Part shown: in pieces, positions 23,175 to 42,452 of the stretch
How positions within the stretch are numbered: position 1 is the stretch's first letter
Layout: every line of letters starts with the position of its first letter
Assembly (NCBI GenBank): GCA_016180965.1
Contig: JACPAF010000001.1
Location: 109,860 to 173,859 of the forward strand
Direction: 5' to 3'
Length of the DNA stretch: 64,000 nucleotides
Source of the DNA: Candidatus Aenigmatarchaeota archaeon
GTDB lineage: Archaea > Aenigmatarchaeota > Aenigmatarchaeia > JACPZZ01
The notes under the pieces: generated by a model
Databases searched by the model: none
What the model saw: the letters and a program-made list of their open reading frames with translations, nothing else
Told to the model about the DNA's origin: nothing
Position numbers and translations under genes: made by a program

Positions 23175-23308
23175 AGTCTCACTCCAACATGTGACTACAA
23201 TTACTCTGTTTTTCAGAACTTAAATAGTTTTTATTATATATTTTATAATATAATATTCTATACGTATTATTTATTCTATTTATATATAAGTATATTTCTA
23301 AATGCATG

Positions 23309-24466: not shown

Positions 24467-24676
24467 ATGGTTGAACTTCCTTACGCTGCTTGCGAGCGCG
24501 TTCTAAGAAAAATCGGGGGCGGGCGGGTTGGCAAAGATGCGGTCGATGAGTTTGCGAAAACGCTTGAGGGCGTGGCGATTGAACTGTCCGCGGAAGCTGC
24601 GACGATGGCGCGGCATGCTGGGCGAAAAACTATCATTGACGCTGATATACGGCTAGCGAAGAAGAAGCTGGTTTAA
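24467..24676 (+). CDS. Archaeal histone (HMf family)
   Basis: 69 aa. ELPYAACERVLRK...ARHAGRKTIIDADIRLA parallels HMfB. Confidence 0.9.
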   Translation: MVELPYAACERVLRKIGGGRVGKDAVDEFAKTLEGVAIELSAEAATMARHAGRKTIIDADIRLAKKKLV

Positions 24677-24738
24677 CATCGAGCTATAGGAACTCCATTT
24701 TAGTTCGGATATTAATACGCTTAATTTCAATTCTTAAC

Positions 24739-25737
24739 ATGCTTTCACTTGAGGAGATAGTCAGCAAGATTTCTGAACAGGTCGGATTGGACAATATTTC
24801 CATCCAGCAAAAGATAGAGGATAAAAAGGCGGAATTGTCCGGGTTAATTTCCTCGGAAGGCGCGGCCCATTTGGTTGCGCGTGATTTGAATGTGGACATA
24901 TTAACTCGTGTGACCCACAAGCTGGAGATAAAAAACATTGTTCCCGGAATGCGCAACACCGAAATTACTGCGCGCGTTTTTCGTGTGTTTGCTGCGCGCG
25001 AATTTGAGAGAAACGGCAACAAAGGAAGGGTCTCCAACATCGTTTTATGGGATCCTACAGGCACTATACGCATGTCGTTGTGGAACGACGAGATAAAAAT
25101 TCTGGAAAACCTGAAAGAGGGCGACATAGTAAAAGTAATGGGTTACAGCAAAGAAGACAACCGCGGAGAACCGGAATTACGATTGGGCAACAGAGGCAAA
25201 ATAGAAAAAGTTGATATTGAATTTCCTTCGATAAACAACGCTGTGAGTGAACAAAAAGGCGGCAACCTTGGAGAATTGCGCGAGGGCGTGACAACCAAAA
25301 TACGCGGTGCCATTGTCCAAATGTTTGAATCGGACCCGTTCTATGAAATATGCCCGCAATGCGGCATTCGTGTGCGAGCGAACGACAATAAATTTTTCTG
25401 CGACGAACATCAATATGTGGCGCCGGATTATTCTATGGTTTTATCCTGTGTGATCGATGATGGTACAATGTCCATGAGAGCGGTGTTTTTCCGCGACGTG
25501 GCGCAAAAACTCATTGGAATGGACGTGCAAACCGCGCTTTCCCTTGCGCGAGAGCGCATGAACAGGACAGCACCGATAACTGAAAAGGCGCCGAACCTGC
25601 TAGGGCGGGAAATGCTGTTTTCCGGGCGCGTAAAAAGAAACCAGATGTTCGACAGGCTTGAATTTATCGTTTCAGACATAAACGAAATTAATCCTATAGA
25701 AGAGTCCGATAAGATTTTAGTTGCAATGGGCGGTTAA
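24739..25737 (+). CDS. rpa: Replication protein A (RPA) with OB folds and a zinc finger
   Basis: N-terminal [20 protein letters not shown]-fold blocks, and [20 protein letters not shown]. Confidence 0.8.
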
Positions 25738-25738
25738 T

Positions 25739-26677
25739 ATGAAAAAGATTGAGATTGAAGATTTACCGGGAGTCGGGCCGAAGGTTGCGGAAAAATTACG
25801 CGAAGTTGGGTACAACGATTTGATGACTATTGCGGCCGCCTCTTCTGGAGAATTAGCTGACGTCGCGGGTGTCGGAGAGATAACCGCTGCGAAGATAATT
25901 GAGGCTGCGCGTGATTCGTTGGAAATGGGCTTTGATACCGCTGAAAAGTTAAAGGAGAAAAGAAAAACCGTAGGTTTTATTACGACCGGTTCGAAGGCGC
26001 TGGACGATTTGCTTGGCGGCGGGATAGAGACGCAGTCGATGACCGAGGCTTACGGAGCTTTTGGTTCGGGCAAGAGCCAGCTTGGATTCCAATTATTGAT
26101 TAACGTGCAATTGCCTCTAGAAAAGGGCGGGTTAAATGCGAAGGGAATGATGATAGATTGTGAAAATACTTTCAGGCCCGTGCGCATTGAACAGCTCGCA
26201 AAGGGCGCCGGTTTGGATCCGCAGAAAGCGTTGAAAAATATACTTGTGGCCCGCGCGCATAATTCAGATCATCAAATGTTGCTTGCAGAAAAGGCTGCGG
26301 ATATGATTGAGAAGAATGATATCAAGCTGATTGTTGTTGACGGGTTGATGTCGAATTTCCGAGCGGATTACACTGGACGCGGGACGCTTTCGGAAAGGCA
26401 GCAGAAATTAAACCGCCATTTACACCATTTACTGAGAATGGCTGATACACACAACGTAGCGATTTATGTTACGAACCAGGTTATGGCAAGACCAGACATG
26501 ATGTTCGGCGACCCGACTGCTCCTATAGGCGGGCACATACTAGGACATGCTTCCACTGTGAGATTTTATTTGCGTAAGAGTAAGGAGGACAAGCGTATTG
26601 TGCGCTTGATAGATTCGCCACACCTCCCGGAAGGCGAAGCCGTGTTCAAAGTTACTCCGGACGGTATACGGGATTAG
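25739..26677 (+). CDS. radA: DNA repair and recombination protein RadA
   Basis: HhH N-domain ([17 protein letters not shown]), Walker [10 protein letters not shown], Walker B LIVVDGL, and the tail typical of RadA. Confidence 0.95.
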
Positions 26678-26784
26678 AAATGATTTGTACGTAAGATCCG
26701 ACCTCGTTTGGTTGAATTTTCGGCTTTCCTATACGTATCAAGCCGGGGTTGGCTGTGTTTTTATTAACCAAGACTCACAATTCT

Positions 26785-26829
26785 AATTGTCGGTTAACCG
26801 ACAATTCGTCTTGTCGGTCATAACCGACA
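26785..26829. promoter_or_regulatory. Two TGTCGG palindromes (candidate operators) abutting the start of the wHTH gene
   Basis: Perfect 22-bp palindrome AATTGTCGGTTAACCGACAATT (26785-26806) and TGTCGGT-CATA-ACCGACA (26812-26829). The gene ATG is at 26834. Confidence 0.6.
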
Positions 26830-26833
26830 GTTG

Positions 26834-27472
26834 ATGTATATGGGGTTTGTTGATTCGATAAAAGCGCTTATTTTCGGCAGGAAAGAGCCTGTTAAACAGA
26901 TTTTACAAGAAACAACCCAACAGCCGTTGGAACATGACAAACCTGTCAAAATGACCCCCGAAGAGTTCGAAGAATTCCTGCGAAAAGGCGGTAATATGGA
27001 TTACACAATAAACAGGGTGGAGAACATGGAAAAGCGAATCAAGGCCATTTCGGAACATCCTATCCAGAAGAAGGTCATTGAACACGAAATATTTTCCGGC
27101 ATGCTTGAAACGATGAAAGAGATGAATTCTAAACTGTCTTATTTGCCCGAAGTTAGCGACCGGGTTAATGCGTTACCCACCAAGAACGAGCTTTACGCAT
27201 TGATGGAGAAGATGACCCCCGGAGCGCCGCGCGATGTTAAACGCGATTTGGATAAAATGGCCGGGAAGGTCGAATCGGAATTAGATGAGGCGTATTTGCT
27301 GTTGTTAAAGGGGAAAGGCGAGTTAACGGCAGACGCTGTCTCGCAGGAGTTTAAAATATCACGCAACACCGCATCAGAACGGTTAAACGCACTATGTGAC
27401 CTGGGTAAAATAAAGAAAATACGAAGAAACAGAAAGGTATTTTTCTCACTAACGTCTGATGGCGTTGTCTGA
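26834..27472 (+). CDS. Hypothetical protein with a C-terminal winged-helix domain
   Basis: The C-terminus LTADAVSQEFKISRNTASERLNALCDLGKIKKI is HTH-like. Confidence 0.6.
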   Translation: MYMGFVDSIKALIFGRKEPVKQILQETTQQPLEHDKPVKMTPEEFEEFLRKGGNMDYTINRVENMEKRIKAISEHPIQKKVIEHEIFSGMLETMKEMNSKLSYLPEVSDRVNALPTKNELYALMEKMTPGAPRDVKRDLDKMAGKVESELDEAYLLLLKGKGELTADAVSQEFKISRNTASERLNALCDLGKIKKIRRNRKVFFSLTSDGVV

Positions 27473-27488
27473 AGTCTCACTTTAGTTA

Positions 27489-27755
27489 TTAAGCAACTTC
27501 TTCTTCGCTGATTATGACGAAATCGCCGACGGATTTAACGGACGAGAATGGAATTAAACGCCGACCCTTTTTATCCTCTTGTAAATTCAAACCGTCTGCG
27601 TGTTTTGTCGGGTCGACCATTACCAAATTCATCAATTCGCCGGATTCTGTTATGAAGCTGATATCTCCGACGGTTCCGAATTTGCGTCCGGTCTCCTCAG
27701 AAACTACAATCTTGCCAACAAAATTTCTTGCACGTATTCTCTCTTCGCCTGCCAT
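27489..27755 (-). CDS. PRC-barrel domain protein
   Basis: 88 aa. FVGKIVVSEETGRKFGTVGDISF...IPFSSVKSVGDFVII is the typical archaeal PRC-barrel pattern. Confidence 0.75.
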   Translation of the reverse strand: MAGEERIRARNFVGKIVVSEETGRKFGTVGDISFITESGELMNLVMVDPTKHADGLNLQEDKKGRRLIPFSSVKSVGDFVIISEEEVA

Positions 27756-27813
27756 AATTAATCACCGATAACTGTAATTATAGCTCCAATACTTTAAATA
27801 TTGTTCGCTCCGA

Positions 27814-27911
27814 CTGAAACATACCGTTGAAAACTAAAGCATAGGTTGCTAGAAACATACCGATACAGTATACGGTATGTTTCAGTTTCCTCGATGCTTC
27901 TGGCTTTCCGG
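27814..27911. repeat. Palindromic repeat copy D (outer half-arm plus a 63-nt block nearly identical to copy B)
   Basis: 27849-27911 equals 16763-16825 except for two A/G substitutions and a reverse-complemented 10-nt spacer (ATACAGTATA versus TATACTGTAT). An extra left arm CTGAAACATACCG lies at 27814-27826. Confidence 0.85.
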
Positions 27912-27923
27912 GAGTGTTTCTAG

Positions 27924-28994
27924 TTATGTAGTTGCCAAAAGAGTCCTCACTTTCGGGGACAATTTGTAGACGAATCCCTTGCCGTGTTTCTCTCGCAGAA
28001 GGCAGTCTCCTTCCATTAATCTTCTTAGGATGTTGTTGACGGAGCGCGAGGCGTGGTCTTCGGTTTTGTAGTCTTCCAGCCCCATCTTTTCCGCTATTTC
28101 CGACGGGCTTAGCGGGCCCGAAATCGCGAGCAGCTTCAAAATTTCCTTCTGTTTTTCCGGCAGTGTTTCTATGAAATTGAGATTAACGGGCGCGGTTTCG
28201 GGTGGTTTGGTGCTTTCGGCTGTGGTTTTGTCAATAACCAGCGATTTACCCTTGTTTTCCGAGATCAGATCGTCACACATTTTCAACACGTTTCGCGGGA
28301 ACCCGCCGGTGCGTTCGTAAATCACGTCTATCGCTTCACGTGAAAACGGGCCTGTGCCTGTTCCGCCGGCAAATTCGATTCTTTTACGGATTAATTCCTC
28401 GACCTCTTCACGTGATAATGACGTTAACTCAACGTGAACTGTTACGCGGTTCAATAACGTCTCCAATTTCTGTTCCAGCATCGTTTCCAAACCGGGCAGG
28501 CCCGCCATTATCACGGACAAATTGTTTACCTGATCGGAAATTGTTCTCAACCACTCCAAAACGTCTGTCGGGGCTTCGTGGCATTCGTCGACGAGTATGA
28601 CCATTTTCTTGGTTTTCAATTTCCGATTAACGTAATTCGCCAAATCATAGAGCGTTATCTTATCCATCGACAAGATCCGCTCAAAAAAAGACGGCTTTAA
28701 AACAGACTTGAAAAGAATCACAAAATCTTCCGGCCTCTCCGGCGGTTTTGTAACGTACAAAACCGCGGTTCCGCTGTCCACGGTGTCTATGAGCTTCCTC
28801 AAAAGGGTGGTTTTCCCGGCACCTGTCGGGCCGATTAGCATTACTATCTTTTCGTTGTTCTCCATGGCATTGACCAAACTATTTAGCTCTTCAGAGTAGC
28901 CTACGAACAGCTGGGGCAATATCTTCAAGGAGAAGGGATTTTCCCGCCAGGCCGGTTTTTCAGCATTGTTTATAGCTATCTGGCCGCTTTCCAT
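27924..28994 (-). CDS. AAA+ ATPase (ExeA/AAA_22-like, Orc/Cdc6-related clade) with a C-terminal winged helix
   Basis: Start reassigned to MESGQ (ATG at 28994). Walker A GPTGAGKTT, Walker B VILVDECHE, GGFPRNVLKMCD, and C-terminal ILKLLAISGPLSPSEIAEKMG. The upstream 59 codons of the ORF track translate the repeat array. Confidence 0.8.
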   Translation of the reverse strand: MESGQIAINNAEKPAWRENPFSLKILPQLFVGYSEELNSLVNAMENNEKIVMLIGPTGAGKTTLLRKLIDTVDSGTAVLYVTKPPERPEDFVILFKSVLKPSFFERILSMDKITLYDLANYVNRKLKTKKMVILVDECHEAPTDVLEWLRTISDQVNNLSVIMAGLPGLETMLEQKLETLLNRVTVHVELTSLSREEVEELIRKRIEFAGGTGTGPFSREAIDVIYERTGGFPRNVLKMCDDLISENKGKSLVIDKTTAESTKPPETAPVNLNFIETLPEKQKEILKLLAISGPLSPSEIAEKMGLEDYKTEDHASRSVNNILRRLMEGDCLLREKHGKGFVYKLSPKVRTLLATT

Positions 28995-28997
28995 ATT

Positions 28998-29241
28998 CTT
29001 CACGTTAAGTAATATGACATTCACGTGAATATATAAACATACACGTGAAGTTGCGTGAAGATGCGTTACCTTTATATTTGAGTAACGTGAAGTTAACGTA
29101 TGGTAACGTGAACCAAATTTGAATAATTGGGCGATTCTAATGGCAAATAGGTGTTTTCTAGCGATAGACATAAATGATCACGTGAAGGTTAACGTGAAGG
29201 TAACGCAAGGTCACGTGAAGTATTGTGGAGGTGACGTGAAG
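28998..29241. promoter_or_regulatory. Phased array of CGTGAAG / TTCACGTGAA words (iteron or mini-ORB-like)
   Basis: Exact forward CGTGAAG at 29044, 29054, 29086, 29181, 29193, 29214 and 29235. CGTGAAC at 29107. Degenerate CGCAAGG at 29204. Palindrome ATTCACGTGAAT at 29019-29030. Reverse CTTCACG at 28998-29004. Spacings between neighbouring forward copies, excluding the 29054-29086 and 29107-29181 gaps, are 10, 21, 12, 11, 10 and 21 nt. Confidence 0.8.
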
Positions 29242-29709
29242 CTTGTTGAGCCCGAAAACCTTCATTTCACGGTCAAATTCCTAGGTAACCTGACTAATGA
29301 CCAAGTAAAGAGGGTTATTGACGCGCTAACCATCCTTCTAAAGAGTGAAACGTCTTCGAAAGTGAGTGTTCGCGGGATCGGTTTCTTCGGGCCTTCGAAT
29401 GCACCTAAGGTGATATGGGCAGGCATAGGGGACGGAAAACCCTATCTTGAAGGGCTTTTTGGCAGGATTTCTGGGGTTGTGAAGGGAATTTGCCCGAAAA
29501 ATGACGAGAAAGAGGGTATTCCACACATCACAATTGCACGTGTGAAGTCAATAAGGAATATAAACAAGCTCGAAGAAATAATACTAAAGGAAAGTGAGAC
29601 TTTCTTCGGGGAAACCCTGGTGGACGCGGTAAAACTGAAGGCTAGCGTGCTAACGCCGACTGGTCCAAGGTACTCCGATATTGCGGTTTTCCCTCTCAAG
29701 AAACCGTGA
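29140..29709 (+). CDS. RNA 2',3'-cyclic phosphodiesterase / 2'-5' RNA ligase (LigT/ThpR family)
   Basis: Start at MANRCFLAIDI. Two HxT/S motifs (LHFTVKFLG and PHITIARV). Confidence 0.8.
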   Translation: MANRCFLAIDINDHVKVNVKVTQGHVKYCGGDVKLVEPENLHFTVKFLGNLTNDQVKRVIDALTILLKSETSSKVSVRGIGFFGPSNAPKVIWAGIGDGKPYLEGLFGRISGVVKGICPKNDEKEGIPHITIARVKSIRNINKLEEIILKESETFFGETLVDAVKLKASVLTPTGPRYSDIAVFPLKKP

Positions 29710-29740
29710 TTTGTTCTAAATTTGAGATTTCTAGTCCAAT

Positions 29741-29777
29741 TGTCGATTTGTCGGTTGTTGTCGGATATCTTATGTCG
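29741..29777. promoter_or_regulatory. Four direct TGTCG half-sites in the ligT/dnaG convergent spacer
   Basis: TGTCG at 29741, 29749, 29759 and 29773, within CAATTGTCGATTTGTCGGTTGTTGTCGGATATCTTATGTCGA. It shares the AATTGTCG word with the 26785 palindrome. Confidence 0.45.
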
Positions 29778-29925
29778 ATTCTAAGGTTGTGTGAGGTGCC
29801 CAAATTGGGTAATTTCCGACACTGTGGTATGAAATACTCTACAGATAATAATACCACAGATGGCTTTGTCAAGCTTTTGAGAAGTTTTGGCGTCTCCTAA
29901 GAGATTTAGCGGTCTATAAATAGCT

Positions 29926-31245
29926 TTATTCCGCTTTTTTGCCCTGCAGCGCCCCTTTCGTTATTACGATTACGCTTGTTCTCGGCAATTTATCCCTCTC
30001 CGTACCAACGAGAAACTTTACGCCGTTGGACTCGGCTATTTCGACCAAATCCTTGGTTACGGTACCGTCAAGAACTATGGCGTGTGCATGTATGCCCGAC
30101 AGTGAACCGGCTATATCCTTGGCCGGAACACGGCCCAATAGGTTTAAGCTGTCATCGTAGATGCAAGCGGCTCTGGTACCTACTAATTCGCCCAACGATT
30201 CTTTGAAAATGTCCGCGTACTTCTTGGGTATTTTTATTGTGCGCCTTGGCTCGTCGCTATCGTACCTTTCTGTAGCAACCGGTCTGGGGGTGTATTCCTG
30301 CGGGGTTTCCTCAGTTGGTTGCTCTGTGCCGGCTGATTCTTCCCTTTCGACTACAGTTGGCGCTCTTTCGACATGCTCAACACGAGAACGTCCGTATTTA
30401 CCAAACGTGTCCTTGTTCTCTGATCTTAATTGATCCATGGATATTTTTTCGCGAATGGCCTTGTAGACCTCCTTTTTCGTCAGCTCTTCGACTTCTTTGC
30501 CTTCCGGGGCACGGGCCACATAGTCGACGTCCGTCAACTGTAAAAGCTGGGATAATATCAGATCGCCACCGCGATCCCCGTCCAAAAAGGCCGTAACTTC
30601 CTTCTCACGCACGATGTCGCGTATTTCTGGCGGTATTGATGTTCCGCCAACCGCGACTGCGTTTTTGATTCCGTTTCTTAGCAGGTTCAAAACGTCAGCG
30701 CGACCCTCGACCAAGATTATATCGTCGGCTTTCGCGGCATCCGGACCCGCAGGCAAATTACGGAATGTTGTTATTTCCGCTACGCGTATTTCCTGTTTTA
30801 TCTGTTCTGATAAAACCTCAGATTCCGGCAGAGACTGGTAAACCAATTCGCGTAAAATTTTCTTGGCAGTATCGATAATATATTTTCTTTTCGCTATTCG
30901 AACGTCTTCGACTTTGGTGATATGTATTACTGCATTGCACGGTCCGACACGTTCGATGGTTTCTATCGCCGCTGCGATTAACGCAGTTTCTGATGCGTCC
31001 AATGAAGATGGTATAGTTATTTTTCCGGAACATTTTCCGTGCGCTGCGGTGATGTAAACTTCGATGCGCCCTATCCTGCCGGTGCGCTGCAGCTCGCGCA
31101 GTTCCAGATCTGTTCCTAACAAACCTTCGGTCTGCCCGAAGACGGCGCCTATGATATCCGGTTTTTCAACTATTCCTTCTGCGTCTATTTGCGCCTCGAT
31201 TATGTATTTTGTAGTCGATTGTGGTAATTTTGCCATTTGAGTCAT
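29926..31245 (-). CDS. dnaG: Archaeal DnaG (Toprim) protein
   Basis: TKYIIEAQIDAEGIVEKPDIIGAVFGQTEGLLG, Toprim IILVEGRADVLNLL and FLDGDRGGDLI. Confidence 0.9.
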   Translation of the reverse strand: MTQMAKLPQSTTKYIIEAQIDAEGIVEKPDIIGAVFGQTEGLLGTDLELRELQRTGRIGRIEVYITAAHGKCSGKITIPSSLDASETALIAAAIETIERVGPCNAVIHITKVEDVRIAKRKYIIDTAKKILRELVYQSLPESEVLSEQIKQEIRVAEITTFRNLPAGPDAAKADDIILVEGRADVLNLLRNGIKNAVAVGGTSIPPEIRDIVREKEVTAFLDGDRGGDLILSQLLQLTDVDYVARAPEGKEVEELTKKEVYKAIREKISMDQLRSENKDTFGKYGRSRVEHVERAPTVVEREESAGTEQPTEETPQEYTPRPVATERYDSDEPRRTIKIPKKYADIFKESLGELVGTRAACIYDDSLNLLGRVPAKDIAGSLSGIHAHAIVLDGTVTKDLVEIAESNGVKFLVGTERDKLPRTSVIVITKGALQGKKAE

Positions 31246-31427
31246 TCCTCCATGATTTTTGGACAGATTTTACTGTTCAAAAGATTTACCCAGAAATGTT
31301 CATTGCAGCCTGTCACTAGCCTGGCCGTTCTGTGTTTGTTGTAAACGGCCAAATGATGATTATGAACGTTGTCTGTCTGTGTAAATCTAAGATCTTATGA
31401 TGCACTGGGTTTATAAGGGTTGCGGTG

Positions 31428-32084
31428 TTACGGTTTTTTACTATCTTCCGCCACAAAAGTGTAACTCGTGGGTCCGTCGGTCTGTTTTGTAGAAGATTTG
31501 AACGCATAACCGAGTGTAGACATATCGACCCGTTCGGCCAAAACTTTCGACCACCCTTCCATCTTATCCGACAATTTCGGCAACTCTGTCAACGGAACAA
31601 AGCTCCCTTCCAACCCTTCGTCAATTACTTTAACCTCGGCGTCAATTTCCAATCTGTAAACCACGCCGAAATGAACGCGGTTAACGGGTGTGTCAGAGAG
31701 CGATAAAAAACCGACGACCTGCGAAACCACATTACCGGAAAAATCTGTTTCTTCTTTTAACTCTCTCATCGCGGCATTGGACACGGTGTCCGTGCCTTGG
31801 TCAACAGGGTTAATGTGGCCGCCTATGCCGATCGATAGCATATCCTTTAAACGCAGTTCGCTGGGGTTTTTCCTTTTCACTGCTAGAATTTTGTCATTGT
31901 TGATAACCATACAATACGGAATGATTTGTTTTTTTGTTTCGTCAGTTTCAGCCTCGCTGCGGTTAACGAAATAACTTTTCGTTTCGATCATATCCAAAAT
32001 TTTTTTATCGAATTCTATTAAACCGGTTTTATTTCCGATTGTTGATTTAAGATCTTCCGTGTTAACAACTAAAACCTGTTCCAT
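31428..32084 (-). CDS. NUDIX-domain protein
   Basis: Nudix box GGHINPVD...NAAMRELKEETDF. The start ATG at 32084 shares its A with the upstream TGA (TGATG coupling). Confidence 0.7.
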   Translation of the reverse strand: MEQVLVVNTEDLKSTIGNKTGLIEFDKKILDMIETKSYFVNRSEAETDETKKQIIPYCMVINNDKILAVKRKNPSELRLKDMLSIGIGGHINPVDQGTDTVSNAAMRELKEETDFSGNVVSQVVGFLSLSDTPVNRVHFGVVYRLEIDAEVKVIDEGLEGSFVPLTELPKLSDKMEGWSKVLAERVDMSTLGYAFKSSTKQTDGPTSYTFVAEDSKKP

Positions 32085-32695
32085 CAGCTCATCCTCGACC
32101 AGTCTCTGAACCCGTCCCTTTTTTGGTTTGACGCCTTGTGTTCTTTCAAACAATTTTCGCATAGGAAATCGTTGTGGAATGATGTCAAGTTCATCGAATA
32201 ATTCCCGCAGTCGTCGCATATGCCTGCCATGTCGCCGACGCGTATGCGGGCCTCTCTTCGGGGTATTTCTTCTGCCCCGCTTCGCATTTTCAGGCGCTCC
32301 TCAAGAAGGTGTATCATCGCTGGTGATGCGCGAACTATGTCTGTGTGCGTGATGATGCCGACTATTTTTCCATTTTCCACCACAGGCAGCCGGCGCGTGC
32401 GGTTGGAAATCATTAAACTCGCAGCGTCGGTCACGTTTTGCAAAGGAGATACGAATATTATGGGGGCGCTCATTATTTGGCCAACGGTCATTTTTTCAGG
32501 ATTCTCGCCGAAGCTGACGACTTTTTTGATTATGTCCGACTCTGTCAATATGCCCACTGGTCTGTTAGAAGATGTTACGATCAAGCTGCCGACACGTTCC
32601 GATGTCATCTTCTCCGCAGCTTCGCGGATTGAAACACCGCTTTCTACAGAAACCACGGTTTCCGTCATTATGTCCTTTACCAGTATTTCGTCCAT
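32084..32695 (-). CDS. CBS-pair protein with a C-terminal zinc ribbon (paralog 1)
   Basis: Two CBS motifs (VKDIMT..., VGQIMS...) plus CDDCGNY...CENC. Confidence 0.8.
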   Translation of the reverse strand: MDEILVKDIMTETVVSVESGVSIREAAEKMTSERVGSLIVTSSNRPVGILTESDIIKKVVSFGENPEKMTVGQIMSAPIIFVSPLQNVTDAASLMISNRTRRLPVVENGKIVGIITHTDIVRASPAMIHLLEERLKMRSGAEEIPRREARIRVGDMAGICDDCGNYSMNLTSFHNDFLCENCLKEHKASNQKRDGFRDWSRMS

Positions 32696-32741
32696 AAGAA
32701 TTTTTGTAGAAACAATTTAATAAATTGGTTAATTAAACGGA

Positions 32742-33293
32742 TCATTCTGTTGTTTTTTCCTGGTTGCAATCCTCACACACCCATTCGTCGTCTACGGACG
32801 TTAAGCGCTCCGAGTAATTGTTACAGGACTCGCATAAACCCACACTGTGGCCGATTTCCAACTGAGGCTCGGATTCGCGCATCTTGGCGCGTTCAGATAA
32901 TATATCTATTAACGACGGCGCCACACGCACTATGTCCGTGTGGGTTAAAATCCCAACTATTTCGCCTTTACTGATCACGGGCATGCGTCGAATGCGACTA
33001 GTTATCATCTTTCTGGAAGCGTCATTTAAATTTTCTTCCGGGCTCAAAAATTTCAACGGCGACGCCATTATTTCCTTAACTTCGACATTGGCTGCGGACA
33101 GGTCACGACTAACCACGCCTTTGATGATGTCCGACTCCGTAATTATCCCCACGGGGTTCTTGCCGCGAATTACGATTAAACTACCGACGCGCCATTTCTT
33201 CATCAGTCCCGCGGCGTTTTGCACAGTTGAATTTTCGCCGATGGTTGCAATGCGGCGCGTCATTGCGTCCTTGACACGCATTTGTTCTGTCAT
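32742..33293 (-). CDS. CBS-pair protein with a C-terminal zinc ribbon (paralog 2)
   Basis: Same architecture (CESCNNY...CEDC). Start chosen at MTEQMRVKDAMT. Confidence 0.8.
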   Translation of the reverse strand: MTEQMRVKDAMTRRIATIGENSTVQNAAGLMKKWRVGSLIVIRGKNPVGIITESDIIKGVVSRDLSAANVEVKEIMASPLKFLSPEENLNDASRKMITSRIRRMPVISKGEIVGILTHTDIVRVAPSLIDILSERAKMRESEPQLEIGHSVGLCESCNNYSERLTSVDDEWVCEDCNQEKTTE

Positions 33294-33329
33294 ATTTTTA
33301 TCTGGTACGCACAAATAATAAAGCTGTTT

Positions 33330-33713
33330 ATGTACGCGAAAGGGTCGAATGCGGAAAGAGAATTCGCCGAATTAATGTGGCGCTGGGATTTTGCGGTTGT
33401 GCGCAGCGCCGGCTCTGGCAACCTAACCGCGGGCGCAAGATACTATTCGCCTGACATTATAGCTGCCAAAAAAGGGGCCATATTTGCGTTCGAATGTAAA
33501 TTCCGAAAAAATTATGTCAAATTAAGCGATGAGGATCTGCACGCATTGAAGGAGTGGTGCCGGCGCGCAAATTGCAAAGGATTTTTGGCATGGAAAATAT
33601 CCCGCAGGGGTTGGTGGCTGCTTGATATTGAACAACTAACTGGCGGTTTGAATGAAGAAAAAATGCAACGGGTCGCGTTATCGTTCAACGAATTTTTAAC
33701 TCGCTTTGCGTGA
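33330..33713 (+). CDS. hjc: Holliday junction resolvase Hjc
   Basis: KGSNAEREFAELM...VVRSAGSG...SPDIIAAKKGAIFAFECKF is the canonical Hjc E...PD...ExK arrangement. Confidence 0.85.
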   Translation: MYAKGSNAEREFAELMWRWDFAVVRSAGSGNLTAGARYYSPDIIAAKKGAIFAFECKFRKNYVKLSDEDLHALKEWCRRANCKGFLAWKISRRGWWLLDIEQLTGGLNEEKMQRVALSFNEFLTRFA

Positions 33714-33809
33714 AGCGGTTTATAAAACTACAACTTTCGGATTTTCGCCTGCCGACACCAGTTCAAAGTTATTAATACGGCCGTCGATGTTTTAACAACG
33801 GCGCATTTC

Positions 33810-33821
33810 GTCGATATCGAC
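33810..33821. promoter_or_regulatory. Perfect palindrome GTCGATATCGAC upstream of the XRE-type regulator gene
   Basis: 12-bp palindrome about 40 nt upstream of the ORF start. Related CGTCGAT/CGTCGG words flank it. Confidence 0.4.
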
Positions 33822-33858
33822 TACGTCGGTTTTATATGTTGGGGTTGTGTATTTTTAA

Positions 33859-34587
33859 TTGATTTTTGTGGATGAGTGGCAGCTGGCTAAAGAAAGTTTG
33901 GCGCGCAAGATAGCCGGCGAAATTGTTCTTTCCGAAGACGCTGGAAAAACTATACAAAAATGGAGAAACATTTTTAAGATACCGCAGCGGGTTTTGGCCG
34001 GCCACATAAAAATAACCCCGTCCGTTATCTCGGACTACGAATCCGGGCGAAGAAAATCTCCGGGCATACGCGTTGTAAAAAAGATGGTTGGTGCGATGAT
34101 ACTCATCGACGAGTCGGCCGGCGGGAAAGTGACGAGACAGTTCTCCGAAAACGCCGGGCAACTTCCGATTACGAAAGCTGTCATTGAGCTAAAAGAATTT
34201 GACAAGGGTGTGCGTGTAGACGAATTTTGCGAAGCCATGTCCGCAAGCATAGTTGCGGGCAAGGATTCGCCGCAGCAGGAAGTTTACGGGTATACGGTTA
34301 TCGATTCTTTGCGGGCGATATTAGAATTTTCTTATTCTGACCTTGTAAAGCTGTACGGCATAACTACGAAGCGCGCCCTAATTTTTACGAACACCTCGAC
34401 CGGTCGTTCTCCGATGGTTGCGATTAAAGTAACAAATTTGAGGCCGGCTTTAATCATCCTTCACGGGGCGCGCGAAGTTGATGAAATTGCGAAACGCATA
34501 GCCGACGTTGAGGGTATACCTCTTGCTGTTTCCAAATTAAACAGCGTCGAGGACGTTGTTGCGGCGTTAAAACAAAAATTTGGATGA
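33859..34587 (+). CDS. XRE-family HTH transcriptional regulator with a C-terminal domain
   Basis: IQKWRNIFKIPQRVLAGHIKITPSVISDYESGRRKSP is a Cro/C1-type HTH. Confidence 0.7.
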   Translation: MIFVDEWQLAKESLARKIAGEIVLSEDAGKTIQKWRNIFKIPQRVLAGHIKITPSVISDYESGRRKSPGIRVVKKMVGAMILIDESAGGKVTRQFSENAGQLPITKAVIELKEFDKGVRVDEFCEAMSASIVAGKDSPQQEVYGYTVIDSLRAILEFSYSDLVKLYGITTKRALIFTNTSTGRSPMVAIKVTNLRPALIILHGAREVDEIAKRIADVEGIPLAVSKLNSVEDVVAALKQKFG

Positions 34588-34597
34588 ATTGGTTTTT

Positions 34598-34924
34598 ATG
34601 ACGCACAGGGGTTACACGCTGCTGCGGTACGCCGTTGAGAGTATACCTAAATATTCTGGCCCACTCAAAAACGATTCTGAGGGTAAACATTTTTACAATG
34701 GGCCACATTTTTCTGTTCTAAAAGAGCCTGGTGTGCTGGGCGAACCCAGAGCGGCAAGGAGGAGCGAACTTGGAGATAATCACGGACTGGCGCCCCTCAC
34801 TCGGGTGTGGCCGATCGATTATAAAAAAGGAACCTCGGTTGTCAGAAAACTCAACGAAATACGCTGGAAAACTCCAGACTATGCAATTCAAAGATTGCGC
34901 GTGGATCTAGAAGATTTGAAATAA
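34598..34924 (+). CDS. Hypothetical protein (108 aa), low confidence
   Basis: It is the only long open frame in a 340-bp convergent spacer. The region is relatively GC-rich and contains several hairpins. Confidence 0.35.
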   Translation: MTHRGYTLLRYAVESIPKYSGPLKNDSEGKHFYNGPHFSVLKEPGVLGEPRAARRSELGDNHGLAPLTRVWPIDYKKGTSVVRKLNEIRWKTPDYAIQRLRVDLEDLK

Positions 34925-34927
34925 AAT

Positions 34928-35758
34928 TTAATACGATTCTATCGCCGCGGCGACAAATATCATTAAAATTGCGATTGTGAATAAAATTACTCCATCCTTG
35001 GCAACTTTTCTGAAACGTTCCGAATTTAATTTTTCCTTTTCTATTCCCGTCGATATTATTCCTCCGGCGAGACCGGCCACAAAATAACTCATTATTTCCG
35101 GTATTCCGTGAAGCGCTATGGATCCCGTGGCTGAAAAGAGGCCGAATAAAAAAGCCAGCGGACTGGCTACAACACCGTACCCGGCCAACGGCATTGCGCT
35201 GGCTTTCGCTAATATGCCGGCAAACACGGCGATTACTGACGCGTTCCAAGTAACAATAAACACGGCTGCGGCCCCGAACAACATTGAAACTGCAAAAGAA
35301 ATGAATGCGACGCGCAGGTTGTTGACCAATATAACGTTGAATGTGGAGGCGTCGAACGCGGCGCCGGTTGTCCGGTCACCGATGTGAGAACTCTTGAGCG
35401 CGGAAAGCTGAAAACTGAAAACGTCGTTTGCGTGAGCCTGGTCCATTGAAAAATAGGAGATTGATGTCGACAACAAAACACCCATAAAAAACCCGGAATA
35501 TATTTTAAGCATTTTCCCGTGGCGCTCCAAAAAATGCCCGCCGCCGGAAACGTCTATGGTCTCCTCGGCTTCAAAAATTTTGCTCATCAGCGGGAACGCT
35601 GCCGCGCTTACCAAAAACAACGCCACTAGCCCGGCTGCCGGTTCAAATATTATGCTAGCAACGACCAACGATACGGTGTTCACGAAAAAACCGAACGCGA
35701 ACACGCGACCCCAATGATTTTTTGACGATTCAAAATCCGTCAGGTTTTCCAGAACCAT
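34928..35758 (-). CDS. Polytopic membrane protein (SpoIIM/DUF95-like)
   Basis: About 6 TM helices. The family assignment is from overall pattern only. Confidence 0.55.
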   Translation of the reverse strand: MVLENLTDFESSKNHWGRVFAFGFFVNTVSLVVASIIFEPAAGLVALFLVSAAAFPLMSKIFEAEETIDVSGGGHFLERHGKMLKIYSGFFMGVLLSTSISYFSMDQAHANDVFSFQLSALKSSHIGDRTTGAAFDASTFNVILVNNLRVAFISFAVSMLFGAAAVFIVTWNASVIAVFAGILAKASAMPLAGYGVVASPLAFLFGLFSATGSIALHGIPEIMSYFVAGLAGGIISTGIEKEKLNSERFRKVAKDGVILFTIAILMIFVAAAIESY

Positions 35759-35810
35759 AGAACAAATATCGTTTACCCGGTTTTATTAGCTTGCTACCGG
35801 AAAATGTTTT

Positions 35811-36491
35811 ATGAATATTCTTGTGGTTGCGGATGTGCACGGCGATTTTGAATCTCTTTCCGATGTGTTACAAAAAATAAATTTTGGCGTCGACGTGGTT
35901 GTTTGCCCGGGCGATTTTACGGACATCGGACTGTCGCTGATGGGGTTTTCGCGGGAGGACATGATGCATCTGGTGTTAGACGAGCTTTTGGGACTGAAAA
36001 GGCCGGTTTTGGCTGTGCCCGGCAACCACGACCCCCCAGAGACGCATAAGATACTAAACGATTACGGGGTAAACCTTCATGGAACAGGCAGGATCATCGA
36101 CGGGATCGGTTTTTTTGGTTTTGGTGGCGCGAAAACACCCTTTGCGACCCCGTTTGAACCGAGCGAAGAGGAAACGAACACCGGATTAAAAAAAGGATTC
36201 GACTTGGTTGCGGGCACGAAACATAAAATTATGATTACACACAACCCCGCTAAAAACACAAAGTTGGACCGTGTCAGCACGGGCGCGCATGTGGGCTCTT
36301 CCGCTGTGCGGGATTTTATAATTAAAAACAAACCCGACGCGTCGATAAGCGCGCACATACACGAAGCTGTCGGCGTAGACGAGCTAAACGGGACGAAACT
36401 ACTTTACCCCGGACCGGTTTCTGGCGGTTGGGTTGGTTTGTTGTCGGTAGGCGATAAAACCGATGTTAAAATTCTTAACCTAAAACAGTGA
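35811..36491 (+). CDS. Calcineurin-like metallophosphoesterase
   Basis: VVADVHGD, CPGDFTD, VPGNHD, ITHNP, SAHIHE. Confidence 0.85.
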   Translation: MNILVVADVHGDFESLSDVLQKINFGVDVVVCPGDFTDIGLSLMGFSREDMMHLVLDELLGLKRPVLAVPGNHDPPETHKILNDYGVNLHGTGRIIDGIGFFGFGGAKTPFATPFEPSEEETNTGLKKGFDLVAGTKHKIMITHNPAKNTKLDRVSTGAHVGSSAVRDFIIKNKPDASISAHIHEAVGVDELNGTKLLYPGPVSGGWVGLLSVGDKTDVKILNLKQ

Positions 36492-36544
36492 CCCCATGGG
36501 TTCGTGTGCAACTCTTCTTTTCGTTTTTTTTGTTTTGGTTGTTG

Positions 36545-36597
36545 TTATATTATATAATATAATTATATTAAATATATAATAATATAGATAATATCAT
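36545..36597. promoter_or_regulatory. Extreme AT tract (candidate DNA-unwinding element or strong promoter)
   Basis: 53 nt containing only two G/C, including 42 consecutive A/T. It lies 470 nt upstream of cdc6. Confidence 0.4.
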
Positions 36598-37008
36598 ATG
36601 AAAATTAAACACCGCAACCAAGATTTCATGATAGCTAAAAACCACGTTAGCTTACAGATGTTGTTGCGGGGTTGGATTATACAGGATTTGTTTTTTGAGG
36701 GTGGGCCGGACCTGATAGCGGCAAAAAAACATGATATGATTAGGATCAAGGTTAGATACGCAACCGCGGGCGACGGCGGACATGTGTTTTCCGCGGGCGG
36801 CTTGCAAGAAAAAATTTTTTTTGAGGTGTGTGAGGGGAGCGATTTACTGGTTTTGGTCTGTATGGACGATGATAAAAACGCGTCGGGTTTCTACATTTTT
36901 AACCGAGACGAATCACCGAAAGCAAAAACTTTCCTGCACCCGCCAAAGGGACCGTTTCCTAAGTATAGGGGGTTTTATAACAACTGGAAACCCTTGCAGT
37001 GGAAATGA
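36598..37008 (+). CDS. Hjc-like PD-(D/E)xK-fold protein with a substituted catalytic motif
   Basis: GGPDLIAAKKHDMIRIKVRY parallels Hjc SPDIIAAKKGAIFAFECKF from the same window, but the ExK position reads KVR. Confidence 0.5.
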   Translation: MKIKHRNQDFMIAKNHVSLQMLLRGWIIQDLFFEGGPDLIAAKKHDMIRIKVRYATAGDGGHVFSAGGLQEKIFFEVCEGSDLLVLVCMDDDKNASGFYIFNRDESPKAKTFLHPPKGPFPKYRGFYNNWKPLQWK

Positions 37009-37068
37009 TGGGGTGTGTGTTCGGGGTTAATGTTATATACCAACAATTCAAATGAAATGTTGGTACTC

Positions 37069-38271
37069 ATGTCCCAGTCTTCTTTGCAAAAAATATTTTC
37101 CGGTTACCTTAAAAACGCGAAAATTTTTGTCTCGAAGGAGCCAATGGCGTCATCTTACGACCCGGTAAACATTGCACATCGCGACAAGCAGATGGAAATG
37201 GTCGCTTCTATACTGGCTCCCTGCCTTCGTAATGAGAAACCATCGAATACGTTTGTTTATGGTAAAACGGGAACCGGTAAAACGCTGTGCGTTAAACACG
37301 TTACGGCCGAGTTGGTTAAAACCGCGGAAGAAAACGGAATACAAATGAAGGTCGTTTTTATCAACTGTAAGATGAAGAAGGTTGCGGACACCGAATACCG
37401 TGTGCTTGCCCAACTTTGCAAAGAATTTGGTTACAGTGTGCCCGCGACTGGGTTGCCAACAAACAGACTTTACGAGATATTTTATGAGAGCTTGGATTCT
37501 CAAAAACAAAACGTTTTGTTGGTCCTCGACGAGATTGACGCGTTGGTTTCAAAGGTCGGCGATAATATATTGTATAACTTAACACGGGTTAACCAGGATC
37601 TCGCCAACGCCAAATTAACCCTTATCGGGGTCACGAACGACCTTTCTTTTTCGGAGGCGCTGGATCCCAGGGTCAAGTCTTCTTTGAACGAGGAGGAAAT
37701 TGTTTTCCCGCCTTACAATGCCCTGGAACTGCGCGACATACTCAGCGAACGGGCCAAGCTGGCATTCGTGACGACCGGGTTAAAAGACGGAGTTATACAA
37801 AAATGCGCCGCTCTTGCAGCACAGGAACACGGGGACGCGAGGCGAGCTCTGGATCTTTTGCGGGTGGCCGGCGAAATCGCGGAAAGGAATGGAGACCTGT
37901 CATTGGAAGAGGCGCATGTCGATAGGGCGCAGGAAAAAATAAACGCCGACCGCGTGCTTGAGACTGTGCGCACCCAGCCCAGACAGTCCCAGGCTATACT
38001 GTGGTCCATTGCCAATAACCAGGACCAAAACCTAACTACGGGCGAAACCTATGAAAGGTACAAAGCGGTTTGCAAGAAGCGGGGCTTGGAAATTCTGGGC
38101 CCCCGCCGCGCTTCGGATCTCATATCCGAGCTTGGCATGCTCGGAATTTTGTCTGTCCATACAACATCAAAGGGCCGGCACGGGCGCACCAAGGAAATTA
38201 ATTTGATGTTGTCGAAACATACGCGAGAAAATATAGTTGAAATGCTGAAAAAAGATTTCTATTTCGAGTAG
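37069..38271 (+). CDS. cdc6: Orc1/Cdc6 replication initiator
   Basis: Walker A GKTGTGKT, Walker B LLVLDEIDAL, LIGVTND, GDARRALDLLRVAGEIAE, and a C-terminal winged helix. Confidence 0.95.
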   Translation: MSQSSLQKIFSGYLKNAKIFVSKEPMASSYDPVNIAHRDKQMEMVASILAPCLRNEKPSNTFVYGKTGTGKTLCVKHVTAELVKTAEENGIQMKVVFINCKMKKVADTEYRVLAQLCKEFGYSVPATGLPTNRLYEIFYESLDSQKQNVLLVLDEIDALVSKVGDNILYNLTRVNQDLANAKLTLIGVTNDLSFSEALDPRVKSSLNEEEIVFPPYNALELRDILSERAKLAFVTTGLKDGVIQKCAALAAQEHGDARRALDLLRVAGEIAERNGDLSLEEAHVDRAQEKINADRVLETVRTQPRQSQAILWSIANNQDQNLTTGETYERYKAVCKKRGLEILGPRRASDLISELGMLGILSVHTTSKGRHGRTKEINLMLSKHTRENIVEMLKKDFYFE

Positions 38272-38278
38272 TGTTTTT

Positions 38279-39301
38279 ATGAACAAGTTGCTGTTGGCTA
38301 AATTTTTAGATAAGGGAATAATGGTATCCCCGTCAATCGCCGGCGAGTTAACGGAAGACGACTACGAAAAAACAGTTTCTGGCTCCATACCCGCGCTGTT
38401 GGACGAGACCACACTGCAAAACATACGCGTCAAATCAGACTTAATTGTAATACCATCAAAGATTGTTAAAACGGAAATCGAGGCCAAAGATTTTTTGGAA
38501 TATTATAAAAATAAAATCAGAGTGCTGGGCGAAGTTATAATCCGGGGCTTGGAGGAAAAGCCGGTTTCGATAAATAAAATGCGGCCCGGCCAGCGAAATG
38601 TAACATTGGGCATCGTACGGGAGCCGGGCCAGGATATGTTTTATCTCGAGGATCTGACGGGAAGATGCGAGGTGCGCACCAACTCGCATAATATCAAAGA
38701 AGACGATGTGTTGGCCGTGTCCGGGGTTTTTTCAGGGAAATCCGTGTTAGCGGAGGAAATAATTTATCCCGAGCTTCCGATAAAACGCGACATAACCAGA
38801 ACAACCTCCCAGGCGTCGTTTTATTTCGGGGCGTCTTCGGACGCGCAGAAAGAGGAGATAAACGAAATCGCGAAACGCGGCGATGCGCAAATTTTCCTTT
38901 CGAATAAAGACGATGCGCGAAAAATTACAATCATGATTTTACACGACGGAGCGGCCACATCTCGGGACGTGAGCGGCCCGGCCAAGATATTTTCCTCCAT
39001 ACACGGTGTGAGATTCAAATTGCAATTCCTTCCGGTACAATCGGCAGGCAACATAGAGGAATCTGCCAGGTTTTTTTCGAAGAGGCGTTATGCGGTGTCG
39101 GGCGCGATTTTGCCAGCATTCAGCGAGGATTTAAATTTTATCGACGACGATACGGACTTTGTCTTCTTCGGTGATTCCGGCTCCACACAGTTTACAAATC
39201 ATAAGGGAAGGTCGTTTGTGTCGGTTTCCAGCGGGTTTGTGGAGGCGGACTTGAACACGCGAAATATAAAATCCTGGCATTTAAATCGAGCCGGACGATA
39301 A
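38279..39301 (+). CDS. DP1-like (PolD small subunit / B-subunit family) protein with a shortened, degenerate phosphoesterase domain
   Basis: DP1-type N-terminus (LLLAKFLDKGIMVSPS). OB fold (VTLGIVRE...FYLEDLTGRCEV...DDVLAVSGVF...IIYPELP). The PDE motif positions read FGASSDAQ, ILHDGAA and FFGDSGS instead of DIHVGS, GNHDA and GHVH. It is 340 aa versus the ~600 aa I recall for Pyrococcus DP1. Confidence 0.75.
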   Translation: MNKLLLAKFLDKGIMVSPSIAGELTEDDYEKTVSGSIPALLDETTLQNIRVKSDLIVIPSKIVKTEIEAKDFLEYYKNKIRVLGEVIIRGLEEKPVSINKMRPGQRNVTLGIVREPGQDMFYLEDLTGRCEVRTNSHNIKEDDVLAVSGVFSGKSVLAEEIIYPELPIKRDITRTTSQASFYFGASSDAQKEEINEIAKRGDAQIFLSNKDDARKITIMILHDGAATSRDVSGPAKIFSSIHGVRFKLQFLPVQSAGNIEESARFFSKRRYAVSGAILPAFSEDLNFIDDDTDFVFFGDSGSTQFTNHKGRSFVSVSSGFVEADLNTRNIKSWHLNRAGR

Positions 39302-39315
39302 TACAGTGGTTGCTT

Positions 39316-41988: not shown

Positions 41989-42452
41989 TATTGGAGTCCA
42001 CGATGATTGACATCATTGGACGCTTTGATGTGTTCAATGCGGCGTTCTTTATGGAATTCATCAGCGCCATAGCATTTCCAGTTTTCACCGTAAGTATAGC
42101 TTTCATGAAAGGGGGGCAGGCAAAAATAGACGCGGCCGCACTCCTGTTGACGACGGTTTCATTTTCTATATTTTTCCAGAATTTTTTCGCCCGGCCCAGA
42201 CCCGCCGGGGCGATTAACCACGCGGAAAGCCCGTATTCTTTTCCGTCGACACACAGCTCTTCTGCTTTCGCTTGGGCCGAGTTTATGGGAATAAAATACG
42301 TCCGATACAAATTGTTGTTTTTTGCGTTTGCGGCGTTAGTTGCTGTTTCCAGGGTTTACATCGGCGTTCATTACCCAGTCGATGTGATAACGGGCGCGAT
42401 TTTGGGGTGGTTTATAGGAAAAATTATTACCAGAGCCGAACGCGAATTTTAA
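41985..42452 (+). CDS. PAP2-family phosphatase (phosphatidic acid / undecaprenyl-PP phosphatase-like)
   Basis: SFPSTHSS and SRVYIGVHYPVDV motifs, multiple TM helices, and an ATGA overlap with the polB stop. Confidence 0.8.
   Translation: MILESTMIDIIGRFDVFNAAFFMEFISAIAFPVFTVSIAFMKGGQAKIDAAALLLTTVSFSIFFQNFFARPRPAGAINHAESPYSFPSTHSSSAFAWAEFMGIKYVRYKLLFFAFAALVAVSRVYIGVHYPVDVITGAILGWFIGKIITRAEREF

Follow-up and report, generated by a model that had tools for sequence, protein, structure and literature searches.

The element considered here lies in a 64-kb stretch of contig JACPAF010000001.1 from a Candidatus Aenigmatarchaeota archaeon (the window, in whose numbering all coordinates are given unless stated otherwise). 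At 28335-29241 a short DNA word, (A/C)ACGTGAAG, with the palindromic form TTCACGTGAA, repeats about once per helical turn beside a gene for an AAA+ ATPase with a C-terminal winged helix. The array extends from the interior of this gene across the spacer to its divergent neighbor ligT and overlays the first ~100 nt of ligT. An initial annotation of the region had proposed either a replication origin served by the adjacent protein or a dense operator array for an unknown regulator. The genes and features of the array are as follows.

27924..28994, minus strand: gene for a 356-aa AAA+ (AAA_22/ATPase_2) ATPase with a C-terminal winged helix (Pfam AAA_22, 65 bits; ATPase_2, 45 bits)

28334..28345: palindromic copy of the word inside the ATPase gene, CTTCACGTGAAA, encoding F-S-R-E-A on the minus strand

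28406..28416: copy inside the ATPase gene, CTTCACGTGAT, encoding S-R-E-E on the minus strand

28432..28439, plus strand: half-site ACGTGAAC inside the ATPase gene, conserved in some members of the clade only

28998..29009: imperfect palindrome CTTCACGTTAAG in the predicted 5' leader/start-site region of the ATPase gene, kept in five of seven loci

29019..29030: perfect palindrome ATTCACGTGAAT, invariant in all seven aligned loci and abutting the TATA-like box of the ATPase gene

29030..29037, minus strand: TATA-like box TTTATATA for the ATPase gene, with the block TGAATATA-A invariant in alignment A1; its promoter role is predicted from archaeal promoter geometry

29043..29060, plus strand: half-sites ACGTGAAG and GCGTGAAG, 10 nt apart and in phase, between the two TATA-like boxes and invariant in seven of seven loci

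29070..29079, plus strand: putative TATA-like box CTTTATATTT for ligT, with CTTTA-AT invariant in A1

29085..29113, plus strand: half-site ACGTGAAG (29085), degenerate ACGTATGG (29096) and half-site ACGTGAAC (29106), downstream of the ligT TATA-like box

29140..29709, plus strand: ligT, of the 2',5' RNA ligase/LigT phosphoesterase family (Pfam LigT_PEase, 62 bits, from residue 9)

29180..29241, plus strand: six phased positions in the ligT coding sequence at 29180, 29192, 29203 (degenerate), 29213, 29223 (degenerate) and 29234, spaced 10-12 nt

The copies listed in the initial annotation were verified at every coordinate, including the palindrome, the reverse copy and the copies within the ATPase gene. 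On the plus strand, CGTGAAG occurs in exact form seven times (29044, 29054, 29086, 29181, 29193, 29214, and 29235) and is accompanied by CGTGAAC at 29107 and a degenerate CGCAAGG at 29204. Three further degenerate positions were found in phase, at 29063-29070 (GCGTTACC), 29096-29103 (ACGTATGG), and 29223-29230 (TTGTGGAG), the last of which reads A/C/T-GTGAAG in relatives. The reverse copy CTTCACG (28998-29004) was found to be part of the imperfect palindrome CTTCACGTTAAG.

The word is locally clustered, as had been proposed. Counted on both strands, ACGTGAA occurs 18 times in the window, with 14 of these within 28335-29241, and the densest 300 bp holds 10 copies compared with at most 2 in 100 second-order Markov simulations. 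The best period for copies on the same strand was 10.6 bp (R = 0.91, p = 0.0015 after a period scan over 9-12.5 bp, with the degenerate positions 29063, 29096, and 29223 included in the lattice). Copies from 29044 to 29235 fall on this 10.6-bp lattice, and the apparent 74-nt gap corresponds to seven turns. A best period of 10.5-10.6 bp was obtained for all 11 arrays examined, whose layouts differ and include independently arranged ones. The clustering and the phase of the word are far beyond chance, and no second cluster was found in the 64-kb window or in the 21-kb loci of relatives. Because the word is found in either orientation, in spacer that is not transcribed and in two genes read from opposite strands, an explanation at the RNA or peptide level was rejected. 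A histone-positioning periodicity was set aside because what is conserved is an exact 8- to 12-nt word and not a dinucleotide rhythm. The comparison with Rfam gave only a sub-threshold chance match (STnc490, 25.5 bits versus 56).

The same array was found in six orthologous loci (L001-L006) and in L017 (72% identity), and its conservation extends over eight orthologous Aenigmatarchaeota loci in total. Over the noncoding part of the aligned loci, 79% of word columns were invariant compared with 38% of spacer columns (p = 3e-6). The sole sizeable indel, located in the 29085-29113 region of L003 and L004, is an insertion of exactly 21 nt, which adds a copy and keeps the phase. Synonymous sites in these genomes are near saturation, and within the ATPase gene only 15% of the codons at invariant residues are invariant themselves; the CACGTGAAG of the 28406-28416 copy is invariant in all seven orthologs, even with a Ser-to-Ala change in L002, and TTT TCA CGT GAA GC of the 28334-28345 copy is retained in five of the seven. 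The ATPase genes of L014 and L018 also contain a palindrome, placed ~640 nt from the start codon, about as far as the 28334-28345 copy.

It had been noted that copies within ligT encode HVK-VNVK-..-HVK-..-DVK and suggested that the DNA word rather than the LigT peptide is selected. The encoding was verified for four to five copies, and the suggestion was supported by codon usage, as 9 of the 10 invariant residues that ligT has within the array segment are encoded by invariant codons, compared with 15 of 53 in the remaining gene (Fisher p = 4e-4). Only the last copy in ligT matches a peptide conserved across LigT, [DN][VI]K-[LF]VEPENLH. From the comparison of orthologous ligT loci, the HVK-VNVK-..-HVK segment was deduced to be lineage-specific and imposed by the DNA word, because LigT of lineages with the array outside the coding sequence has a charged first helix of the ordinary kind, containing 0-1 words. 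Selection acts on the word and its phase at the DNA level, inside two different genes as well, and the array provides a natural example of a DNA-binding code overriding codon choice and amino acid sequence in the two genes that overlap it.

The short AT-rich patches described between the copies are present, although one of them, TTTATATTT, is not a mere patch and is assigned as a conserved TATA-like box for ligT. A second TATA-like box, for the ATPase gene, abuts the palindrome ATTCACGTGAAT, and the array contains both of these divergent boxes with copies on both sides of each. The layout of TTCACGTGAAT beside a TATA box recurs in L021 and L055, whose ATPases are 45-46% identical in protein sequence. 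In the window clade, L021, and L055, the sites overlap what is predicted to be the core promoter of the ATPase gene itself, as is characteristic of an autoregulatory operator. The site geometry appears typical of an archaeal operator, with the palindrome placed between the TATA box and the predicted start site and the other copies flanking or following the ligT TATA box.

For the comparison with relatives, 8-64 kb of each genome was covered. The ATPase family comprises hundreds of DPANN proteins of ~350 aa with 41-54% identity, and orthologs from metagenome-assembled genomes of Candidatus Aenigmatarchaeota are 70-93% identical. The conserved gene order is DnaG ... LigT or an OB-fold gene, the divergent ATPase, PRC-barrel, RadA, RPA, and histone. 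The sampled ATPase proteins fell into three clades. In clade A (the window clade with L014 and L018; 52-100% identity), the array lies between ligT and the ATPase gene. Clade B (L021/L149 and L055; 45-46% identity) has far larger and wholly noncoding arrays of 18-25 copies over about 400-555 bp. For L021/L149, with a genome of 29% GC, ~18 CGTGAA hexamers were found in the 480 bp upstream of the ATPase gene, many as CTTCACGTGAA palindromes; a single 500-bp bin upstream of this gene holds 18 of the 19 hexamers of the 21-kb locus, and ligT, ~1.6 kb away, has none. For L055, ~25 copies are spread across the 555-bp intergenic region upstream of the ATPase gene, and ligT is again without copies. This intergenic region contains a ~90-nt G+C-rich spacer free of words (L055 coordinates 6900-6990) between two word clusters. 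Clade C (L008, L015, L019, and L020) has 1-3 (C/T)TTCAC words at the ATPase promoter, with the pentamer enriched there (7 observed versus 1.7 expected, p = 0.002).

In clades A and B the array adjoins the ATPase gene wherever ligT sits, and it is tied to the ATPase gene and not to ligT. The word itself is unchanged over 45-100% ATPase identity. The opposite direction was taken by scanning 185,579 GTDB genomes, at the DNA level alone, for pairs of TTCACGTGAA palindromes within 30 nt, which gave at least 120 matches. Among the 120 matches listed, one was archaeal (L055) and stood directly beside the 45%-identical ATPase homolog; nearly all the others were bacterial and are consistent with parS clusters. 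The conserved array, the rearranged loci and this reverse search together bear out the proposal that the array is a selected DNA element tied to the adjacent ATPase. A nearby TrmB-like winged helix-turn-helix (wHTH) protein (26831-27472) was also considered as the binder but rejected as the best candidate, since the array-bearing clade B loci (L021 and L055) lack it and its own promoter carries no word. A non-exhaustive check of the literature found no earlier description of the word in archaea or of a function for the ATPase family.

The ATPase had been called Orc-like, a description that was supported for its shape but not for its family. The AlphaFold model (pLDDT 85.7) consists of an AAA+ core, a lid and a C-terminal winged helix, with three helices between beta2 and beta3 that are compatible with an initiator-specific insert. 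The closest PDB folds found by Foldseek were 1w5t, 1w5s, 2qby, and 1fnn (including A. pernix ORC2 and Sso Cdc6/Orc1) and the uncharacterised PABY2304, at TM scores of 0.5-0.6, followed in the list by RuvB, RFC, and STAND NTPases, also at 0.5-0.6. In sequence, Pfam matched AAA_22 and ATPase_2 only, with neither Cdc6_lid nor Cdc6_C, and alignment with the Cdc6 encoded in the same window gave an hhalign probability of 4.7%, with the P-loop alone in common. When the protein and the family profile were each compared with PDB sequences, only P-loop matches and a weak MecI/BlaI wHTH match came back, and the likeness to Orc is at the fold level only. The best NCBIfam match was the ExeA-like PEP-CTERM ATPase, far below its cutoff.

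The Walker A motif, the Walker B motif (DECHE), R183, and R234 are invariant in 40 homologs. R183 and R234 are candidate catalytic arginines, and this conservation would be compatible with an ATPase that depends on oligomerisation. The wHTH recognition helix is also invariant in the 40 homologs (A315/R317/N320/N321/R325/L326), which appears to match the constancy of the word across 45-100% identity. A weak Penicillinase_R wHTH match in Pfam (residues 280-344) points to a winged helix of the BlaI/MecI type, and this likeness to the MecI/BlaI repressors would count for a regulatory role.

In kind, the element is a phased iteron/operator array, and its partner belongs to an uncharacterised family of Orc-fold ATPases found widely among DPANN archaea. 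We consider it somewhat probable that the array is a helically phased, cis-acting set of binding sites for the adjacent Orc/Cdc6-fold ATPase, through which the protein would autoregulate its own gene and regulate ligT. Of the two initial proposals, the dense operator array came closer than the origin, with the amendment that the regulator is probably the adjacent ATPase itself, as suggested by the comparative evidence. The identity of the binder, the cooperativity and the sign of regulation are what we infer in the following scheme. A dimer would nucleate on the invariant palindrome TTCACGTGAA abutting the ATPase-gene TATA box (site ATTCACGTGAAT, the likely primary operator), and more protomers would join cooperatively on ACGTGAAG half-sites. 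Since the half-sites are one or two helical turns apart, the wHTH contacts would all lie on one face of ~250 bp of DNA. The cooperative addition would probably be ATP-dependent because the Walker motifs, R183, and R234 are invariant. Since the stretch holds both divergent core promoters, occupancy would control the expression of ligT and also, as autoregulation, that of the ATPase gene at the level of transcription, with repression as the simplest mode. The conserved copies 580-660 bp inside the ATPase gene may serve as auxiliary looping sites.

A precedent for an Orc-shaped AAA+ wHTH protein acting at promoters rather than at an origin is Orc1-2 of Sulfolobus/Saccharolobus, an Orc1/Cdc6 paralog that regulates promoters by binding a short hexanucleotide motif (PMC6061795; PMC9738581). 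Orc1-2 is, however, a true Orc1/Cdc6 member acting at single motifs in many damage-response promoters, whereas the ATPase belongs to a different sequence family (AAA_22/ExeA-like) and its putative sites are gathered at its own gene in a single dense, phased array.

Several points weigh against autoregulation by the ATPase. The promoter and start-site positions were predicted from TATA-like boxes, and co-localisation of the array with the ATPase gene is no proof of the binder. Clade C is poor in arrays and keeps the ATPase with 1-3 weak sites, so the core function of the protein cannot need a large array. Conversely, the 18-25 copies in L021 and L055 exceed what autoregulation needs and hint at an extra architectural function. 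Further arrays or regulon sites may also lie outside the 8-64 kb covered in each genome. The significance of the assignment is that a widespread and unstudied ATPase family gains a concrete candidate DNA target with a defined word, phase and nucleation palindrome. The genomes of DPANN archaea are minimal, and, to our knowledge, almost no DNA-binding systems have been characterised experimentally in them.

The alternatives draw on two neighboring regions, of which the features are as follows.

27489..27755, minus strand: gene for a PRC-barrel protein (Pfam PRC), the downstream neighbor of the ATPase gene, outside the array

36490-37017: probable canonical origin upstream of cdc6, with an A/T run, an origin recognition box (ORB), and an inverted G-string element

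37015-38271: Orc1/Cdc6 gene (Cdc6_lid and Cdc6_C; NF001625, 494 bits)

A PRC-barrel homolog was present on the same locus in 13 of the 13 related loci that reach past the ATPase gene, immediately downstream of it in most; L001 was left out of this count as its locus ends too early. The 88-aa protein is 94-100% identical within the window clade, compared with 70-93% for the ATPase, and 65-68% identical in distant clades. In the window clade its gene has its own TATA box, preceded by a hairpin. The protein is a possible functional partner of the ATPase, linked to it by adjacency only. PRC-barrel proteins function in archaeal cell division in haloarchaea (10.1101/2023.03.28.534520). The hairpin, at 27813-27886 between the stop of the ATPase gene and the TATA box of the PRC-barrel gene, is a perfect 15-nt inverted repeat (ACTGAAACATACCGT/ACGGTATGTTTCAGT) with a third copy, GAAACATACCG. 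It is kept in L002 and L003 through compensatory changes (CATACCG>CATGCCG in both arms) and could be a terminator, a small RNA or a further palindromic operator; Rfam gave no match.

The Orc1/Cdc6 origin of the chromosome is probably the region upstream of cdc6 (~36.5-37.0 kb), separate from the array. This region has the lowest GC content of the window over 60 nt (5%), and no pure A/T run in the window is longer than the 42-nt one at 36545. The ORB box CAGTGGAAATGATGGGGTG is located here as well, at 36995-37017, with TTTCCAGTGGAAACGATGGGGTG as its counterpart in L017, and the sole full ORB match of the 64 kb (patterns GTGGAAA[CT]GA / GGAAA[CT]GATGGGG) is at 36999-37017. An inverted G-string element lies on the far side, at about 36490-36515, and the A/T block and ORB are kept in L017. 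The distance from this origin to the array is 7.5 kb, and cdc6 and the ATPase gene are 7.7 kb apart in the complete chromosome CP070662.1 (clade C); no cdc6 was found within 10 kb of the ATPase locus of L149. The locus is origin-proximal in two of the three clades.

The surroundings form an origin-proximal island of DNA-transaction genes (24467-41988), with histone, RPA, RadA, the ATPase, LigT, DnaG, NUDIX, two CBS proteins, Hjc, an HTH_3 protein, a SpoIIM-like protein, a metallophosphoesterase, Cdc6, a PolD-small-subunit-like open reading frame (ORF), and PolB, an order retained in L017 and largely in CP070662.1. The PolD-small-subunit-like ORF and then PolB are downstream of cdc6. This ORF (38279-39301, 340 aa) lies directly after cdc6 and has no Pfam match; its NCBIfam match, to the small subunit of DNA polymerase II (PolD), is weak and covers only part of it (E = 5e-10, residues 53-178). 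An equivalent 335-aa ORF follows cdc6 in L150.

The array may have a role beyond transcription, given the very large number of copies in clade B, its closeness to the origin and the PRC-barrel gene as a constant neighbor. The ATPase-array pair could, as a tentative and rather doubtful extension, be an unrecognised chromosomal nucleoprotein system of DPANN archaea, in which the Orc-shaped ATPase would polymerise on the origin-proximal array, either as a centromere-like structure or to couple replication and division, perhaps with the PRC-barrel protein and with autoregulation as a by-product. Should the array prove to do more than serve as an operator, it would become the first candidate for a chromosome-organising site in the DPANN superphylum.

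It is unlikely that the array is in the first place a centromere-like or chromosome-organising site, on which the ATPase would polymerise near the origin and mark or position the chromosome for segregation or division via the PRC-barrel protein, with promoter control as the by-product. The model for such a site is parC of plasmid R1, in which two sets of five 11-bp iterons around a promoter are cooperatively bound and act as operator and centromere in one (PMC2241845). The array resembles parC in having two blocks of short direct repeats at about one helical turn (10.6 bp) flanking the core promoter of the adjacent operon, and its copy number of up to ~25 in L055, the 7.5-7.7 kb to cdc6/oriC in two of three clades, and the PRC-barrel gene beside or near the ATPase gene at every locus long enough all fit a centromere. 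Unlike parC, however, which is bound by a small ribbon-helix-helix dimer, the array would be bound by a 356-aa AAA+ wHTH ATPase, and its genes (ATPase, PRC-barrel, and LigT) have no adjacent actin- or ParA-type motor or ribbon-helix-helix adaptor. It is furthermore chromosomal, syntenic across a phylum-level group, composed of palindromic as well as direct copies and extended into two coding sequences. No ParA, ParM, SegA-type motor or ParB is encoded among the annotated ORFs of the 64-kb window, the array-poor clade C retains the ATPase and PRC-barrel genes, and L149 lacks a nearby cdc6. The link to the PRC-barrel protein is one of adjacency, and in the window clade its gene is served by its own TATA box after the hairpin.

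A further point for a centromere is that TTCACGTGAA is identical to the 10-bp core of the 16-bp bacterial parS, TGTTTCACGTGAAACA, and is origin-proximal in two clades. This resemblance is most likely coincidental, and a ParB/parS explanation was rejected, because the window has no ParA or ParB, the flanks differ (CTTCAC versus GTTTCAC), and the array consists mostly of half-sites of the form ...GAAG, ending in G and not A, in 10.5-bp phase rather than isolated 16-bp palindromes. The binder would also be a wHTH protein and not ParB. Six parS-like palindromes, (T)TTCACGTGAA(A/G), spaced by 21, 12, 24, 24, and 21 nt, were observed at 7184-7296 of the IMG/VR contig 3300035512_000212 (L142). They lie inside a 247-aa ORF of a viral/mobile contig without an ATPase homolog and probably represent a phage or plasmid centromere overlapping a gene.

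It is likewise improbable that the array is the operator of a different, unlinked regulator, such as a cell-cycle or stress factor, of which the ATPase gene and ligT would be mere targets. The presence of two promoters inside the array would suit such a regulator, and the candidate binder was proposed from comparison over a fraction of each genome. The array nevertheless stays with the ATPase gene in three rearranged contexts and over 45-100% protein identity, with the word unchanged and the recognition helix of this ATPase invariant. A regulon factor would be expected to have more sites, and no second word cluster was found in the 64 kb or the 21-kb loci. The TrmB-like wHTH protein encoded nearby shows no co-occurrence with the array.

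The proposal of a replication origin did not hold, and a second origin or origin-like element, for which the Orc-fold ATPase would be the dedicated initiator that fires or regulates it, is considered very unlikely. Each of the Sulfolobus origins has its own adjacent initiator gene. As in archaeal oriC, multiple dyad-symmetric and half-site boxes lie beside the gene of an AAA+ wHTH protein of the same fold, for which winged-helix recognition is proposed here also. The many dyad-symmetric repeats in the long intergenic regions of L021 and L055 resemble mini-ORB clusters, and replication genes (RPA, DnaG, Cdc6, and PolB) are nearby. Unlike oriC, the array has a word unrelated to ORB (TTCCA-N-TGGAAA core, G-string) and no A/T-rich unwinding element. 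Its minimum GC content over 60 nt is 0.30 compared with 0.05 upstream of cdc6, and the arrays of L055, L021, L014, and L017 have no exceptional A/T stretch either. The space of the array is taken by two predicted promoters, and also by coding sequence in the window clade. The ATPase has no sequence relation to Orc1/Cdc6 beyond the P-loop, and the canonical cdc6 origin with its ORB and conserved A/T block is 7.5 kb away.

The suggested GC-skew check gave no inflection at 29 kb over the 64-kb window; the GC and AT skews were silent at the canonical origin too and are uninformative at this scale. DnaA boxes at oriC and the dnaA promoter and the iterons of plasmid Rep proteins are repeated words near the gene of an initiator that binds them, oligomerises cooperatively and autoregulates. 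They differ from the array in being coupled to an unwinding element and to replication, neither of which was found here. With the true origin identifiable 7.5 kb away, the locus is a caution against calling origins from repeats beside an Orc-like gene. A captured mobile replicon was rejected, as no ATPase homolog was found in IMG/VR by a close-relative search, no close homolog is encoded on the seven viral contigs that carry paired palindromes, and no matching archaeal array was found in viral or mobile contigs.

Elsewhere in the window, a free-standing LAGLIDADG_3 homing-endonuclease-like ORF (42464-43081, minus strand) lies one gene downstream of PolB, after a PAP2 phosphatase ORF (41985-42452). 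An unusual fusion of an ATP-cone, an Mrr_cat restriction-endonuclease fold, and an AF1548-like C-terminal domain is encoded at 9263-10051 on the minus strand. Near the DUF373 gene, A/T-rich intergenic stretches with 7% and 10% GC over 60 nt were observed at 23228 and 22106, respectively, the former with a 30-nt A/T run. A 1,587-aa protein (10096-14859), with a marginal filamin-repeat match only, is followed by a 500-aa protein without a Pfam match (14866-16368), and both are probably surface or host-interaction proteins of the kind typical of DPANN genomes.

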